Shown piece after piece: positions 4,551 to 60,520 of a DNA stretch of 64,000 nt; positions within the stretch are counted from its first letter, which is position 1, and each line of letters starts with the position of its first letter. The position numbers and the translations under genes are program-made. Below the pieces are notes generated by a model. The model ran no database searches. It had not been told where the DNA came from and saw nothing but the letters and a program-made list of their open reading frames with translations. The DNA is from Dictyostelium fasciculatum (Eukaryota): assembly GCF_000203815.1 (NCBI RefSeq), contig NW_004457695.1:1360054-1424053 (forward strand), read 5' to 3'.

Positions 4551-5326
4551 CTATTTTAAAAAAAAAAAAAAAGAAAGAAATAAAAAAGAGGAAAAACTAT
4601 TGGGAGAAAAAAGATAGGAATTGCTTAAGTAGACTAATGCAAAGATGTTGATCAAAAAGTATGAATTTTATTCAGTCTAAATAAAATAAAGAGAAAAGTA
4701 TAGCTTTCATATCACCTTGGGGTTCTGAAAAGTGTTTATTATGACAGCAGAGCATGACCATGTCCCGCGTGATCCAAATTGATGTCTGAACAAAGATATT
4801 TAAAAAAAACTGGTCAATCAGATTTTAATTGAAATGCTCAAAACGAAAGTTTTTATCGTCTTTTGATTTTAATCTATTGGCCAACCTCATTTTCCCTACC
4901 ACGTCAGTAGTCCCAATAGTTCACCTTGGTTTGTGGGCATAGTGAGGTTTACGATAGGCCTAAAAGGTGATACATGTACCTTTGATAAAAAATAAGAAAA
5001 CAAATGAAATGATTGGATCCCTTTGGCAGCTGAGAATCAGAGTCTACGTCAGCACTTTGATCCCCAATAGAATCCTTTCCTTTGCACTGTTTCCAGTGAC
5101 TATGTTCAGTGACCAGTGACTTTGGGAAAAAAAGGAAAGCTTGTACAAAAGAAATGATTAGAAAATTAATTTAATAACAATTCTAAACCCATCAGATAAC
5201 TATTTAAAGTGCTAATTTTTGTTTATTGATTCCAGTATAATAATTTCAATTCAACAAATACATTCTCTTCTTTCCTACCAACCACATCAACAACTAAACA
5301 ACAACTTTTCTGTTATTTTCACAACA

Positions 5327-5393
5327 ATGAGATTTTTACTTGCTCTTATTGTATTTGTCTGTTTGGCTTTCCAATCAGCTTATGCTCAAATTG
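5327..5393 (+). CDS. Upstream copy of the signal-peptide exon (MRFLLALIVFVCLAFQSAYAQI); possible alternative first exon or orphan remnant
   Basis: Its donor GTAATT at 5394 leaves phase 1, as the downstream copy does, so it could splice to the exon at 5877. Confidence 0.35.
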
Positions 5394-5710
5394 GTAATTA
5401 TAAAAGATATAATGTTTAATATTAGAGATACAGATATTCATAAACTAATATAATTTATTATTATTTCTCTTTTGGGAAGTCAAGCTGTTCATCGTGAGGT
5501 TGGAAAGGAAAAGGTTGTACAAGAAAGAGTCAAAAATGATTAGAAATTAAATTTAATAACAATTCGAAATCCATCAGATAACTATTTAAAGTGCTAATTT
5601 TTGTTTGTTTGATTCCAGTATAATAATTTCAATTCAACAAATACATTCTCTTCTTTCCTTTCCAACCACATCAACAACTAAACAACAACTTTTCTGTTAT
5701 TTTCACAACA

Positions 5711-5774
5711 ATGAGATTTTTACTAGCTCTTATTGTATTTGTCTGTTTGGCTTTCCAATCAGCTTATGCTCAAG
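5711..5774 (+). CDS. Secreted protein paralog B, exon 1 (signal peptide)
   Basis: MRFLLALIVFVCLAFQSAYAQ. The donor GTAAAT is at 5775. Confidence 0.75.
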
Positions 5775-53778: not shown

Positions 53779-53889
53779 ATAGTAAATAAATAAATAAATA
53801 AATAATCATTTTTTTTTTGTTCTTTTCTTTTATCAACCAATCAAAATAATAATTTTCTATTTTTGGGTAGACGATTTTTTTTCATGGTA

Positions 53890-54628
53890 GGAAGACAAAG
53901 GTGTTTGATAGGATGAGGATTTGATGGAATTTGATGGCGAATGAATAGAAATGCAGCCACGTTTACTAAACTATGCTCTATCTTGTCGAGGGCCCTACGA
54001 TATAGATAGTAATTGGATAGTTAAGTTATAATCAAGATCTTATATAAACTATGGTTAGTCTTATAGATTGTATAGTGTTATATAAAATGTAATAATAATG
54101 AATGATGAGAGCTGTTGCTCGTTTGTAGGTGCGTGAGAATTGGGATTTTGTAAAAATGGTCCATTCTCATTACACACGGATGAGTACTACACTAAGATGA
54201 AAAAATCCTTGGCACAAAACAACAAAAAGGTTGAGGCCCCATCGAGGTTCGAACTCGAGACCCCTTCCTTACTAGGGAAGTACAATAACCACTATGCTAT
54301 GGGGCCTTGCTTTTTTGATGCAAAATTCTCCATTCCCCCTATTTATACCCCCCTTTTACAAAGACCCTATCTATTTTTAGAACAAGCAACAATCCAAAAC
54401 AATCCAACATGCTTGACACTATACAAAAAGATACATGATCAACGTCCATACAACATGTATCATAGACATGGACAAACCCCCAGAACAAATTAACTTTAAT
54501 TCTTCTTGAGATAATCTTTATTTCTTGCTGGTCAATTAAAAAGTATAATTAATAAAACTTTGTGACTTCTGAGTACTACTCTTCCCGATAGGAGAGAACA
54601 GGAAAAGAATTACTTTAAAAAAAAAAAA
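53890..54628. repeat. Left arm of the inverted repeat pair; carries tRNA-Thr and ends in an A-run
   Basis: It is the reverse complement of 57627-58790 with indels. It ends in AAAGAATTACTTTAAAAAAAAAAAA at about 54605-54628. Confidence 0.8.
54234..54306 (-). tRNA. tRNA-Thr (anticodon AGU)
   Basis: GGCCCCATAGCATAGTGGTTATTGTACTTCCCTAGTAAGGAAGGGGTCTCGAGTTCGAACCTCGATGGGGCCT read on the minus strand. The anticodon loop is CTAGTAA, the T-arm is TCGAG/CTCGA and the acceptor is GGCCCCA/TGGGGCC. Confidence 0.85.
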
Positions 54629-57149
54629 CCTTTTACAAAGACAAATGCAAGGCACCCAGAAGCATCTGAGCTAATTAGGACTAGTCTCGCATCATTATCA
54701 TCAAACTATTATAAATAAAGACTAGGATAGACTGGGGACTATCCAACCTTGTAACCTACTCGTCAGTTAGACTGACGACGTGGATAGAGCACTCGAAGAG
54801 TCTCTTAAAGGTTGTTCATTCATTATACTCTTCTCCCCACATATCTCTGTAATAACTATATAGATACTTGGTAAATATATAATTAGTTGAGAGGTATATA
54901 ATAATAATATATAGATATATGAATATATAGATAGTAATAATGACTTTAGATTAGATTGTAAATGATTATTAATTATAGTAATAAAAGATGAATTAATGTT
55001 TATTGATTTCATTGGTCTTTTATAGTTTGTTGTTCGAGACGACTAACCGACAATAGTTTAGTCGTTAGTATTTTTATCCAGCATACTTTCTATATTTGGC
55101 ACCAGGATTAAGTATGTTGATAATTAGATGAAATATCATTGACTAATCATTGAACTGTACTTTAATTTACAATCTGAATCCAACAATCTCTACCAACTGT
55201 TTATTACAAAGCTTGCTGTTAATATAGCCTTGCTTGATGATACTTCAAATTGCTTCCATTTAAATATACATCGCGCTCCCTAACGAAATAAATAAATAAT
55301 AATTATTACCTATTCATCTTCTTATTCTTCCAATAATACATAAACATACATCTGATTTTGAAATCTTTGTTTCTCAATTCTGTAATGCCATTTTCCAATA
55401 TTGAATTCGTTGCTCGCCTTCACTCGAATTGCTTGTTGGTCTTGGTTTGTTGTTTGGAAGTGGATGTTTCCTCTGTCTTTTCATCGTCGCCACTATCTGT
55501 ACAACCACAGTCTAATCAAGTAGAGATGTTTGTTGACAACCTCTATACCTTTTCGTGTCATAAAAGTCGATCGTTTATGAGAGTGATAAGCTGTCCAATC
55601 ACAGTCTCTGGTTTACCATTGACATCACCTGTTACCTTTGTTGCATTAATACTATTAAACATTCGTAACAGCTTGTACACCAACGAGACCATTCATCAAC
55701 TCATTCATCTGCCCTCATGCAGTGATCTTTTCTCTAGAGGATCACATGTAACATCGTCTCGAAACCAAATGATCTATATGTAGGTAGTAGATAAAGAATA
55801 TGTATTGTGTATTGTACAGATATAGTTGGATCGAGAGGTGGATGTGGAGTAGGACAACATTAAATATAGAGTAGGCAATCATTTGTTTTAATTAATACTT
55901 AATAATTGATTAAAATGAATTTAAAAAAAGAATATCATCACCATAGCGATCTCTACCTTTGAATTTTTTTAAAAATGGACATTCCTCAGTTTGCCTTCCT
56001 CTCTACGATGGTGTGGTCAACATGTTCCAATCATATTCAGATTCAAGCAACTCTGAAGCAACCAGCTCTGCTCCAGAAGAGTATTGACTGGGATTAGGGA
56101 TTGCGCTTCCATCGCCACTGAAGAGGAAAGAACCAAACTCTTTGTATCTTTCTTCAAGGTCAAAGTCTCCCCATCGTTCTTTAGAATCATTGGAAAAAGA
56201 GATGTGGTTGGAGGACCAAGATCTATAGCCATGTCTCACTATTTGGTTCTATCATTGCATTCAAGATGTTGGTTGAGCGCCTCCCAAATGCCTTTTCACC
56301 GCAATCAAGTGAATCTCTTTGATACACGTGATAAAAGAAAGGACTCTTCTCCTTCTTTGTCCACCCAACAACAAAAGAAAAGCAAGGTTGATGCCCGAGA
56401 AACCAAGGAACAACAAGTCCCATCAGAGAAACCAAAGCCTTTTGCACTCTGGAGCACACCAATGCCAATATCGGCCGAATATGACTATGATCATAAAGTC
56501 GCTATCAAAAGAAAAGATGGAGAGGAATTCAATCAACCGTTGGTCTTTCAAAGTGGGGCTGATGCTATGAAGTGGTGTATAGATCCTCTGCTTTAAACCT
56601 ATTACACCTCGGCTAAAACCCAAGAGAAACAAATCAAATATGTACCTGTGGTGTCGTATACTTTTGTTGATGAAGAAAATCAATTCGAATTTCCCACTCT
56701 TCACAATGGTGAATACCAAGGTCCATTTGATATTGTATGAGATCCTATTTTTGGTAATAGGTTATATTATATGGGATATAAACAAATTAAATTCATCGTC
56801 AATACTTATACCCATATTGTTAAAGTAGAGTTACAATTTGAATCGAATTTGTTTGCTGGACAAGGTGATCAAACAATATTAAGTATTTTGAATAAATAAA
56901 TAAATAAACTTTATGAATATTATTAATATCAAAAGTGTATCTTTATCTTGTTATTTATTAAATTTAAATACAAACACTTATGATAAAAAAGCAGACGAAT
57001 TTTATCTTTTTTTTTTTTTTTATAAATCTGGACTCTAGTCGTCGGACAATAGAGTAATTATGGTTTATTTGTTTTAATTTTAATTAAAATAGTTAGAGTT
57101 TCTGTTAGTATAGGGGCTTGTAGCCCCGTTGTTGGGTGGTATTGTTTCT

Positions 57150-57300
57150 TATATTATTATTATTATATTATTATTATTATATTATTATTATTATATTATT
57201 ATTATATTATTATTATATTATTCTTATATTATTATTATATTATTATTATATTTTTAATTGTTATATTATTATTGCATTATTACTAGATTATTGTTGATGT
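57150..57300. repeat. (TATTAT/TATATTATTAT)n microsatellite
   Basis: Direct reading of the sequence. Confidence 0.8.
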
Positions 57301-58415
57301 ATCGCTTGTTGGCTAATAGTTGGTGGTGATAATTGGGAGAGGGAGGGGTGTGGCGAGTTTCCCCCATGTTCTTGCGAACCTGGCGAAGGATTGTCTGGCA
57401 TGTGTTTGGGTCTTGATTATTTCGTCAGTAGGGCTGTTGGCGATGGCTGTTGTGGTTTGGTTAACCAGTTTGGCGTGTTCGACGTAGATTATACCTTTGA
57501 ATCTTGCAATGACCATCTTATCTTCGTTTTCATCAGGTGATATTGTCGAGTGATAGATGGTGTTGAGGTGGTGGTGCCATTCCTTTAGAAGCATGATAGA
57601 TACTAGGGTTGAGTATCTGGTTTTTTTTTTTTAAAGTAATTCTTTTCCTGTTCTCTCCTATCGGGAAGAGTAGTACTCAGAAGTCACAAAGTTTTATTAA
57701 TTATACTTTTTAATTGACCAACAAGAAATAAAGATTATCTCAAGAAGAATTAAAGTTAATTTGTTCTGGGGGTTTGTCCATGTCTATGATACATGTTGTA
57801 TGGACGTTGATCATGTATCTTTTCGTATAGTGTCAAGCATGTTGGATTGTTTTGGATTGTTGCTTGTTCTAAAAATAAATTGGTTAAAGATATCGCTTTT
57901 TTTTTTTTTTTTTTTTTCTCAGCACTCTAAGCTGTAATAGTGGGAAAAATAAGTATTCTAAGTAATCATTATTATTAATAAAATTAAAATATTATTATTA
58001 TTAATATTATTATTGATAGATGAAGAGAGAATAGAAGAAGATGAAGGTGTTGACGCAAATATGGCACCCATCTTCTTCTAATTTTAGTACCATACTTGCG
58101 GTGAAACCTTAAGCCTTGGGTGCGTCCAAGACCGACTGCCGCTCTCAACTCTCGCGCCGATTTACTCCCCATTGTGGACACTCGTCTTTACGTGTTGCAT
58201 ATTGTATTTGAGATGTCAGATGGCTTTCTATCGCGACGGCCCAGTAGGTCCTCCACTACCTTCCCGTTACTTGTTGCAGTCTGGCTACCCAATCTCCTGC
58301 TGAGAAGGGGAAACTAACCCGGTCATCCTTCCGTGGGGGTGTCCTGTCTCTAGATCCCTAGAGTCGGATGGTTTTTCTCCTCAATCCCCCCAATTGTGTC
58401 AAGTTAAACGTTGGC

Positions 58416-58508
58416 GCCAAAGGTAAAGTTCGAGGGCAGGATTCGAACCTATGACCTTTACGTTCCCGGGGTAGCACACTCCCGACTCACTTGCCACGCC
58501 ATGCCCCT
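58416..58508 (-). other. tRNA-like element (box-B-like GGTTCGAATCC) that does not fold into a canonical cloverleaf; tRNA pseudogene or retroelement-derived
   Basis: The minus-strand read contains ...AGGTCATAGGTTCGAATCCTGCCC...TTTGGCGCC. The acceptor pairing is imperfect. Confidence 0.25.
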
Positions 58509-58565
58509 TGAGTATCTGGTGCGATATCGTATAAAAAGGGGCAAATCAATTTTGGCAAACTCAAA

Positions 58566-58638
58566 GGCCCCATAGCATAGTGGTTATTGTACTTCCCTAG
58601 TAAGGAAGGGGTCTCGAGTTCGAACCTCGATGGGGCCT
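58566..58638 (+). tRNA. tRNA-Thr (anticodon AGU), identical to the copy at 54234-54306
   Basis: The same 73-nt sequence on the plus strand. Confidence 0.85.
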
Positions 58639-59520
58639 CAACCTTTTTGTCGTTTTGTGCCAAGGATTTTTTTTTTTGCCGCTGTCATCTATGTGTAGTA
58701 CTCGTTGGTGGCTAGCATTTCTATCCATTCGCCATCAAAATCCATCCAATCCTCATCCTATCAAACACCTTTGTCTTCCTGCTCTGAAAAAAAAAAAAAA
58801 TAGGTTCCCATTTTGCCAAGTGTAAGACAAGAAAGTTGGCAATTGTGTTTATCCCAAACCTAACATGTCGTTGCATGAAAAATAATTAGGATATGAACCA
58901 CATTTTCATATTTTTCTGCTTATGGAGTTCTTTTTTTTTGGTAAAATACACTCTAATATTTTTATAGACAAAAAGACCACCAATTACCAAATATTCTTAA
59001 CTACGTATGGGTCATATCTAAATCCAAACCTAACAAGAATGAAAATTTCTCTTGTTTTATGTATAAAATCTAAATGGGGTTAACTCTTGCAATCACAAGA
59101 AATGGTCCAAAAGAGGTTGTCTCTATCCCAACATTAAGAATAGTATTGAAACTCGTGACGATATTATTTCTCGTACGTAGAAAGCAAGCGGTCGGTAATG
59201 TTCTTACCACATTGGTTGCCAATGAAAGTGGGTGAAATAGAAATTCATTTTTAATAAGATTACACAAAAAGAGGGGTTTAATGACATACAACGTAGAACA
59301 GTTCTATAAGTGTCCGTTAAATATGGTAAAATTTGATAAATCAAAGTATTATTTTTTCCATTCAGAGTGTCTTCAAATAAAAAAAAGAAACCCAAATGAC
59401 CAAAAATTACCAAGCTTCTGGCGGCTCAATTTTCGCCCAAAAAAATTTCAGTCAAATTGGCAATTTGTAAAAGACGATTGTAGGGAGAAGTAGGCTTTTT
59501 CGAAATAGGGGTCATCGGTG

Positions 59521-59563
59521 GATTCTATGGTCGAGCGGTCTAAGACGTCAGTTTAAGGAACTG
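59521..59563 (+). pseudogene. Truncated tRNA-Leu(AAG) 5' half (acceptor, D-arm and anticodon arm only), with the same upstream flank as the full copy
   Basis: GATTCTATGGTCGAGCGGTCTAAGACGTCAGTTTAAGGAACTG then diverges. About 25 bp of upstream flank is also duplicated. Confidence 0.6.
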
Positions 59564-59708
59564 TTCATTTGGACCAATATATTAGTTTAGAGACTTATGT
59601 TTGTCATTATCTATGCTATTTTTAAAGTCAATATAAACACATTTCTAACAGAATAGAGGCAAAAAAAACCAAAATAAGTAGGCTTTTTCGGAATAGTTGT
59701 CAGCAGCG

Positions 59709-59788
59709 GATTCTTTGGTCGAGCGGTCTAAGACGTCAGTTTAAGGCACTGATCCTCCGGGGCGTGGGTTCAAATCCCACAGGAATCA
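59709..59788 (+). tRNA. tRNA-Leu (anticodon AAG), class II with an 11-nt variable arm
   Basis: The acceptor is GATTCTT/AGGAATC plus a discriminator A. The D-arm is GTC..GAC, the anticodon loop is TTAAGGC, and the T-arm is GTGGGTTCAAATCCCAC. Confidence 0.8.
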
Positions 59789-59827: not shown

Positions 59828-60520
59828 CCATTTTTTCCATTCCTCCTCCATTCCTCTCCATTCCTCTCCATTCCTCTCCATTCCTCTCCATTCCTCTCCA
59901 TTCCTCTCCATTCCTCTCCATTCCTCCTCCAATCCTCCTCCATTCCTCTCCATTCCTCCTCCATTCCTCTCCATTCCTCTCCATTCCTCTCCATTCCTCC
60001 TCCATTCCTCTCCATTCCTCTCCATTCCTCTCCATTCCTCTCCATTCCCTCCATTCCTCCTCCATTCCTCTCCTCCATTCCTCTCATTCTCCTCCAATCC
60101 ATTCCTCTCCATTCCCCTCCATTCCTCTCCATTCCTCCATTCCCTCCTCCATTCCTCTCCATTCCCCTCCATTCATTCCTCTCCATTCCTCCAATTCCTC
60201 CTCCATTCATTCCTCTCCATTCCCTCCATTCCTCTCCATTCCTCTCCATTCTCTCCATTCTCTCCATTCCTCCTCCATTCATTCTCTCCATTCCCCCCCA
60301 TTCATTCCCTCCCATTCCTCTCCAATTCCATTCTTTCCCTCTTTCCCCTCTTTCCCCTCTTTCCCCTTTCCCTCCTCTCCTTTCCCTCCTTTCCTTTCCC
60401 CTCTCCATCCTCCATTCCTCCTCCTCCATTCCTCCTCCATTCCTCCATTCCTCCTCCATTCCTCCTCCATTCCTCCATTCCTCCTCCCCTCCTCCTCCCT
60501 TCCTTTCCTTTTTTTCTCCA
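59828..60520. repeat. About 700 bp tandem satellite of a degenerate 10-mer (CCATTCCTCT)n
   Basis: Direct reading. The table ORFs 59786-60631 on the minus strand (MERNGEEWRG...) are translations of this repeat. Confidence 0.85.

Follow-up and report, generated by a model that had tools for sequence, protein, structure and literature searches.

We describe a stack of inserted DNA upstream of a tRNA-Thr(AGU) gene in a 64,000-nt stretch of the Cavenderia (Dictyostelium) fasciculata genome (contig NW_004457695.1, positions 1,360,054 to 1,424,053; hereafter, the window, with positions counted from its first nucleotide). The core of this stack is an 886-bp insertion that begins with a GC-rich noncoding module, terminates in a poly(A) tail, is bracketed by short direct repeats, and abuts an older poly(A)-ended unit, here called unit 2. 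The region is very probably a stack of poly(A) retroelement copies without long terminal repeats (non-LTR elements) that reached their position upstream of tRNA-Thr by target-primed reverse transcription, in the manner of TRE5 elements. The 886-bp insertion is recent, and its limits are evident from comparison with a second tRNA-Thr locus in the same window. Two open reading frames (ORFs) of the window match C. fasciculata DFA_08157 and DFA_08166 exactly; these proteins are encoded on a scaffold of 3.47 Mb.

The two tRNA-Thr loci of the window, hereafter left and right, are inverted repeats of each other. Similarity resides in a 265-nt pair of arms (54366-54630/57619-57883; 98% identity, 98.5% by blastn), a 109-nt pair that includes the tRNA genes (54200-54308/58564-58672; 99%), and a third block (53875-53954/58715-58794; 93%). 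The first two blocks are separated by 57 nt at the left locus versus 680 nt at the right locus, confirming the extra DNA that a previous sequence-only reading of this stretch had noticed in the right arm. The inserted unit is in fact 886 bp long and includes the 265 nt that this reading had counted as shared arm. The tRNA-Thr genes and their downstream flanks are true paralogues, and the 45-nt spacers upstream of them resemble each other only loosely.

At the right locus, the 13-mer TTGAGTATCTGGT has exactly two copies in the window (57609-57621 and 58508-58520), and the insert runs between them on the minus strand, from 58507 to 57622, with its 5′ end toward the tRNA. The proximal copy begins 45 nt from the tRNA-Thr 5′ end, i.e., 46 bp upstream, placing the duplication at −46/−58. 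Read on the minus strand, the order of elements is the 45-nt spacer, the 13-mer, the GC-rich module, an (AAT)n microsatellite with approximately 50 further nt, a run of 21 A residues (A21), a linker, the 3′ module, a tail of 11 to 12 A residues, the second 13-mer, and unit 2 (Table 1). The 5′ end of the insert reads GGGGCATGG..., and the stretch of approximately 50 nt after (AAT)n ends in CTGAG. In the internal A21 that follows, a first retro-unit has probably left its poly(A) tail. The window has nine exact direct repeats of 13 nt or more that are not of low complexity and lie 100 to 1,500 nt apart, compared with an average of 0.56 in shuffled sequence; two of these nine flank the two retroelement copies described here (the 13-mer and the 14-mer of the left locus). 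The sequence-only reading had listed both 13-mers, with coordinates off by 5 and by 1, and its proposal that they are target-site duplications is well supported: they enclose an insert that lies on the minus strand, ends in poly(A), and points its 5′ end at the tRNA, and the proximal copy starts 45 nt from that gene. It had also let the GC-rich DNA end about 56 bp upstream of tRNA-Thr, a distance typical of TRE5 elements. The distance class is correct, and the GC-rich part, with its edge at 58507, lies 58 nt from the tRNA 5′ end at 58566.

The left locus harbors a shorter, independent copy of the 3′ module, comprising 251 nt versus 886 nt at the right locus and flanked by the perfect 14-mer CCTTTTACAAAGAC. 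Six unmatched nucleotides, CCTATC, occupy its 5′ junction. The 3′ module differs between the loci at 2 of 245 positions, and the spacer from tRNA position +1 to the first duplicated base measures 45 nt at both. At both loci the element directs its 5′ end toward the tRNA and its tail away from it, which puts it on the minus strand at the right and on the plus strand at the left. Homology between the loci ends exactly at the poly(A) tails, beyond which the outer flanks are unrelated. The 265-nt arm is thus the 3′-terminal part of a poly(A) retroelement, of which two independent insertions occurred at the same position upstream of paralogous tRNA-Thr genes. It is not a segmental duplication, because homology stops at the tails, each copy has its own duplications, the two differ at 2 of 245 positions, and the distance to the tRNA gene is an identical 45 nt. 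The conjecture of a truncated or unfamiliar tRNA-targeted element at TRE5 distance is therefore borne out by the second tRNA-Thr gene, with its independent copy, its 14-bp duplication, and the same distance. A BLAST search of the window against itself for further copies of the 3′ module retrieved the left copy only, and exact 22- to 26-mers of both modules matched nothing in metagenome, prokaryote-genome, or viral collections.

TRE5 elements integrate in a window of 47 ± 3 bp upstream of tRNA genes (PMC5391098, PMC5911963), with the element 5′ end facing the tRNA 5′ end (PMC3159450), and are known for 5′ deletions, nontemplated nucleotides, variable duplications, and tandems at already occupied tRNA genes (PMC3159450, PMC5391098, PMC5911963). 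D. fasciculatum carries Df_TRE5-A.1, A.2, A.3, and B, with approximately 110 mostly partial copies located 31 to 98 bp upstream of tRNA genes (PMC5006619). The insertions described here share with this family of the L1 clade of non-LTR elements (Dd_TRE5-A/B/C; Df_TRE5-A.1/.2/.3/B) the integration distance (45 nt) and the fixed orientation at both loci, an A tail, target-site duplications, 5′ truncation with extra nucleotides, a tandem with an older resident copy, and a host species that carries TRE5. The hallmarks of target-primed reverse transcription are likewise present, namely A11-12 and A12 tails, 13- and 14-bp duplications, 5′ truncation, and additional nucleotides at the 5′ junction. 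Unlike TRE5 elements, the insert contains no ORF1, ORF2, endonuclease, or reverse transcriptase sequence: no ORF, Pfam match, or protein relative was found in the 886-bp copy that would correspond to an ORF2 with endonuclease and reverse transcriptase. It also differs in its 51%-GC module with a B box and in its internal A21, which are undescribed in the TRE5 literature cited here. Since it lacks such an ORF, the 886-bp copy is filed as TRE5-type by its integration behavior and not as a proven Df_TRE5 member. In this respect it resembles TRE5-A.2 and the engineered TRE5-Absr, nonautonomous elements that are mobilized in trans (PMC3159450), as a short copy without reverse transcriptase at an authentic TRE5 position, which implies trans-mobilization. 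TRE5-A.2, however, has retained ORF1 as well as the C-module hairpin that retrotransposition requires, whereas the insert has neither an ORF nor a significant 3′ hairpin.

The GC-rich module is the most unusual part of the insert. Over its 488 nt (58020-58507) the GC content is 0.51, within the top 0.5% of all 480-nt windows of a stretch with 32.5% GC overall. The sequence-only reading was hence right about a block of roughly 50% GC but overstated the contrast, which it drew against a genome of 75 to 80% AT, since the window is approximately 68% AT. From 58507 on the minus strand, the module starts with GGGGCATGGCG. The box-B-like element that had been pointed out in it is a perfect B box (GGTTCGAATCC, minus strand, 58439-58449; the plus strand reads GGATTCGAACC) at positions 59 to 69 from the module 5′ end, and the sole match to GGTTCGAANCC in the 64 kb, where 0.03 would be expected. 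Inspection by eye of the module's first 58 nt revealed neither TRRYNNARYNG nor the permissive A-box motif TNNNNNANNNG (motifs as in D. discoideum; PMC5391098). In line with the earlier remark that this element does not fold into a proper tRNA, neither ARAGORN at default settings nor the Rfam tRNA model detected a tRNA in the module. ARAGORN at the relaxed setting -ps85 makes a weak pseudo-tRNA call, an 84-nt cloverleaf with a 4-base anticodon at 58428-58511. This cloverleaf differs from the minimum-energy fold, which is not a cloverleaf, and the Rfam tRNA model gave no match to it at E values up to 10. The T-arm may resemble that of tRNA-Ser. A tRNA-derived head of the GC-rich module is thus possible, not demonstrated, and that its B box binds TFIIIC may be proposed more speculatively still.

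No open frame of the GC-rich module exceeds 71 codons, Pfam returned no match for it, and a word-indexed protein search with six-frame pieces of the GC-rich and 3′ modules found no relatives. The negatives of the latter search are weak, given that it missed the protein relative of unit 2 (DFA_08713; see below) that an exhaustive search recovered. A suggestion that the module could be a GC-rich structured noncoding RNA, to be examined by covariance and folding scans, found no support. Searches with Rfam 15 on both strands, at the gathering threshold for the whole window and at E values up to 10 for 57200-58800 and for the 141 nt of 58395-58535, matched only tRNA genes, and the folding energy of the module was no better than that of shuffles (z scores of +0.48 in sense and −0.15 in antisense orientation). 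Nor did a folding signal emerge from the module head or from the units' 3′ ends, apart from the 3′ region of unit 2. A 15-bp perfect hairpin (AGAAGAAGAUG...CAUCUUCUUCU) is located at 58030-58080, at the 3′ edge of the module. As in unit 2, the module is followed by a microsatellite, here (AAT)n, a short unique stretch, and an A run; this common layout suggests that the GC-rich module is a retro-unit in its own right that became joined to the 3′ module.

Unit 2 abuts the insert on the side distal to the tRNA and reads in the same direction. Its frame is open from the 5′ boundary to a stop, over 102 codons (57621 to 57313), and is followed by an 11/14-nt AT microsatellite (57149-57292) and an A15 tail (57007-57021). 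Three hairpins occur in its 3′ region, with a fold z score of −3.0. The adjoining block at 57300-57613, previously described as C/A-rich, has this composition on the minus strand, the strand of the open frame; on the plus strand it is G/T-rich. Among 1.84 billion representative proteins, the sole relative of the frame is C. fasciculata DFA_08713, at 83% identity over 40 amino acids, after which the two are unrelated. Unit 2 could be a short nonautonomous element or a 5′-truncated processed copy of a cellular mRNA. The match to DFA_08713 starts at 57615 (TACTCAA...), inside the 13-mer, and the two preceding codons differ, reading Thr-Arg (ACCAGA, the first 6 nt of the 13-mer) versus Phe-Gly in DFA_08713. 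Because the match begins only at 57615, the last 7 to 9 nt of the 13-mer are assigned to the unit 2 family and the first few are not. Such partial sharing is what staggered cuts across the junction between flanking DNA and a resident element would be expected to leave, which argues for a duplication and against a leader common to the two units.

A plausible course of events can be assembled from these features and from what is known of TRE5. Devoid of coding capacity, the insert must owe its copying to an endonuclease and a reverse transcriptase that an autonomous element provided in trans. We infer that this was presumably one of the published Df_TRE5 families, as the source of ORF1 and ORF2 proteins that, in keeping with the TRE5 literature, would have been drawn to the tRNA gene by its TFIIIB. 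The endonuclease would have nicked the distal edge of the future duplication, where the A tail primed reverse transcription, and second-strand cleavage 13 to 14 nt nearer the tRNA would have generated the target-site duplication. At the right locus, the new copy would have cut 13 nt into the edge of the resident unit 2 (57007-57608), creating the tandem. As to how the halves of the insert were joined, the most likely route would be an insert RNA produced by read-through of, or template switching between, two retro-units, with a single composite element as the less likely origin. One reading of the linker GCGATATCTTTAA is that it represents a duplication from a source locus in which the GC-rich unit stood in tandem before the 3′ module and was transcribed through it. 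Chimeric retrocopies and 3′ transduction are known for mammalian L1. The insert resembles such chimeras in that two unrelated poly(A)-ended units lie head to tail, with the first tail (A21) where the GC-rich unit meets the 3′ module and a single 13-bp duplication pair outside both; the left locus shows the 3′ module on its own, without the GC-rich unit. The difference is that the event here would be due to a tRNA-targeting element in an amoeba.

Several observations weigh against this account. The 3′ module family is represented by two copies, both within the window. Above the level of shuffles, neither heads nor tails are common to unit 2, the 3′ module, and the GC-rich unit; a stringent reverse transcriptase would find no shared 3′ sequence to recognize in the three retro-units, and the 3′ ends of the insert form no unusual hairpin. 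Besides, CGATATC, a 7-mer from the palindrome GCGATATCGC, occurs at 58523-58529, on the tRNA side of the 13-mer, and at 57889-57895, just after A21. It thereby flanks the GC-rich unit alone, as would be expected were that unit a separate, later insertion, and a stack of TRE5-type copies leaves the pair unexplained (rough chance probability, ∼0.01). Of the 10 nt of this palindrome, 9 (CGATATCGC) are present in the right-locus spacer, and a degenerate version of CGATATC, GATAAAATTCG, follows the unit 2 tail.

The CGATATC pair figures in a different scenario, in which tRNA-Thr and its flanks underwent a plain inverted segmental duplication and only the GC-rich unit (∼57897-58522, starting GCACCAGATACTCAA...) was inserted later. 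CGATATC would then be a 7-bp duplication at −37 to −43, and the 13-mer a 5′ leader common to the GC-rich unit and unit 2. This fits the presence of CGATATC directly outside both ends of the GC-rich unit, the termination of that unit in A21, the 4 nt of the 13-mer that the relaxed ARAGORN pseudo-tRNA takes into its acceptor stem, and the occurrence of GATACTCAA at the 5′ edge of the unit 2 family. It denies, however, a duplication to the 265-nt module of the right locus, even though a perfect 14-mer flanks the left copy, and makes a coincidence of the 45-nt distance at which both the 13-mer and the 14-mer lie. Nor does it account for arm homology that ends exactly at the poly(A) tail at both loci with unrelated outer flanks, for the codons over ACCAGA that DFA_08713 does not share, or for the heads of the GC-rich unit and unit 2 being alike in the 13-mer only. 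On account of the missing duplication and the spacing coincidence, a simple inverted duplication followed by an insertion of 620 bp that made a 7-bp duplication was judged less likely, and we regard it as improbable. Still harder to credit is that the GC-rich block is not mobile DNA but a structured noncoding RNA gene or a degenerate tRNA-like gene. Its high GC content, its perfect B box, and the 84-nt cloverleaf seen at relaxed ARAGORN settings would suit such a gene, yet no Rfam family matched it, even at E values up to 10 on the 141-nt stretch, its folding energy does not exceed that of shuffles on either strand, it has no A box by TRRYNNARYNG, the block is missing from the paralogous locus, and poly(A) comes after it. 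Least probable of all is a deletion at the left locus instead of an insertion at the right. With two loci only, no outgroup gives formal proof of the polarity; the left copy nonetheless has an intact 14-bp duplication directly at its 5′ end, which a deletion would not create, and the duplications differ between the loci.

Within the favored explanation of TRE5-type insertions, two specifications were weighed. The insert may represent the 3′-terminal part of a 5′-truncated published Df_TRE5 LINE (long interspersed nuclear element; A.1, A.2, A.3, or B), with the GC-rich block in its 3′ untranslated region (UTR) and A21 as an internal run. This special case, which would make the finding already known, is a serious but minority option. 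Nearly all of the ∼110 Df_TRE5 copies 31 to 98 bp upstream of tRNA genes are partial (PMC5006619), the left copy resembles a shorter truncation of the same RNA, and the 3′ UTR of D. discoideum TRE5-A is long and modular (PMC3159450). It would be unusual, however, for a noncoding 3′ region to span at least 886 nt and to include a 51%-GC block and A21, and neither Pfam nor the word-indexed protein search disclosed a trace of the ORF2 C terminus. Somewhat more tentatively, the insert could belong to an undescribed nonautonomous family of Dictyostelia resembling short interspersed nuclear elements (SINEs), in which a GC-rich, B-box-bearing head and a 3′ module derived from a TRE5 LINE use the TRE5 machinery to hitchhike to −46 of tRNA genes, or else the insert and unit 2 could be retrocopies of cellular poly(A) RNAs placed by TRE5 enzymes. 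SINEs are noncoding, poly(A)-tailed, and duplication flanked. The insert is likewise noncoding, poly(A)-tailed, and flanked by duplications, has a B box (at positions 59 to 69 from the 5′ end) as do tRNA-derived SINEs, and may have its 3′ module in common with a partner LINE. It departs from these SINEs in the absence of an A box, in the lack of significant similarity to tRNA (Rfam), in its length of 590 to 886 bp, and in internal runs of four or more T residues that would stop RNA polymerase III (Pol III).

The GC-rich block would in sum be the front part of an ordinary insertion of the TRE5 kind, in a species known to carry TRE5 elements. As such, the region offers a clean example of TRE5-type targeting in a group-1 dictyostelid, with two independent insertions at the same −46 position, intact duplications, and one tandem, and adds little beyond Spaller et al. 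2016. What is unusual is the noncoding, B-box-bearing, composite structure of the insert. If the combination of GC-rich B-box head and 3′ module recurs as a nonautonomous family, social amoebae would have their first SINE-like element. If TRE5 enzymes of this species copy unrelated poly(A) RNAs, this would bear on how strictly they recognize their own 3′ end and on the exclusion of processed pseudogenes from compact amoeba genomes; D. discoideum has been reported to lack processed pseudogenes (PMC3159450).

Table 1. Positions and strands of the features at the right and left tRNA-Thr loci and of the neighboring tRNA-Leu gene (a point marks features listed without a strand).
Feature	Position	Strand	Basis
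Right locus: tRNA-Thr(AGU), targeted Pol III gene	58566-58639	+	ARAGORN; Rfam tRNA, 60.7 bits
Right locus: spacer, 45 nt, from tRNA 5′ end to proximal duplication; same length in left locus	58521-58565	.	Sequence
Right locus: proximal 13-bp target-site duplication, TTGAGTATCTGGT on plus strand, ACCAGATACTCAA in element sense	58508-58520	.	Exact match
Right locus: GC-rich (51%) noncoding 5′ module of insert (U1)	58020-58507	-	GC content, no ORF, Pfam, Rfam
Right locus: AT-rich (AAT)n microsatellite and ∼50-nt U1 3′ region	57918-58019	-	GC content, 0.14-0.26
Right locus: internal A21 (T21 on plus strand), longest homopolymer in window	57897-57917	-	Sequence
Right locus: 13-nt linker GCGATATCTTTAA between A21 and shared 3′ module, including CGATATC	57884-57896	-	Sequence
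Right locus: 3′ module (E_a) also present at left locus, 2 mismatches in 245 unambiguous nt; 6 further nt at 5′ edge match poorly	57633-57883	-	blastn, alignment
Right locus: A11-12 tail of insert	57622-57632	-	Sequence
Right locus: distal 13-bp target-site duplication, last 7-9 nt also assigned to older unit 2	57609-57621	.	Exact match
Right locus: older poly(A) retro-unit abutting insert (unit 2)	57007-57608	-	Sequence, DFA_08713 relative
Left locus: tRNA-Thr(AGU)	54233-54306	-	ARAGORN; Rfam
Left locus: proximal 14-bp target-site duplication CCTTTTACAAAGAC, 45 nt from tRNA 5′ end	54352-54365	.	Exact match
Left locus: independent 5′-truncated copy of 3′ module (6 nt CCTATC, 245 nt, A12)	54366-54628	+	Repeat search, alignment
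Left locus: distal 14-bp target-site duplication CCTTTTACAAAGAC	54629-54642	.	Exact match
tRNA-Leu(AAG)	59709-59788	+	ARAGORN; Rfam

The surroundings of the two tRNA-Thr genes show further rearrangements. A segment of ∼217 bp at ∼53961-54181, 52 nt downstream of the left tRNA-Thr gene, is absent from the right locus; its position is compatible with the downstream-targeting elements Df_Skipper-2 or Df_TRE3, and its length is incompatible with the 312-bp Skipper-2 LTR. About 45 nt 3′ of both tRNA-Thr genes, and in the sense of the tRNA, lies a homologous segment of ∼115 nt (58685-58800 at the right; 53875-53960 and 54182-54200 at the left), with 93% identity over an 80-nt block and a terminal A run (A14 right, A8 left) at which homology between the loci ends. 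This segment may be an old TRE3-type remnant or a piece of a retro-duplicated tRNA unit. The left tRNA-Thr gene is adjoined by DFA_08166 (53158-53778), encoding a 206-amino-acid predicted secreted protein with a paralogue in the same 90%-identity cluster, DFA_06740, on another scaffold.

The tRNA-Leu(AAG) gene has been partially copied: a 79-nt direct duplication (89%; 59488-59566 versus 59676-59754) spans 33 nt of its upstream sequence and its first 46 nt, with the result that the intact gene is preceded, 188 bp upstream, by a truncated pseudo-tRNA-Leu. Approximately 50 nt past the 3′ end of the intact gene, after a T18 run, begins a 10-bp satellite (TCCATTCCTC) of ∼65 copies (59836-60508), to which a lone 17-mer at 54327-54343, in the spacer upstream of the left tRNA-Thr gene, is related. 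Finally, several exact direct repeats of 17 to 31 nt at a constant spacing of ∼383 bp point to a tandem duplication at 5189-5745.

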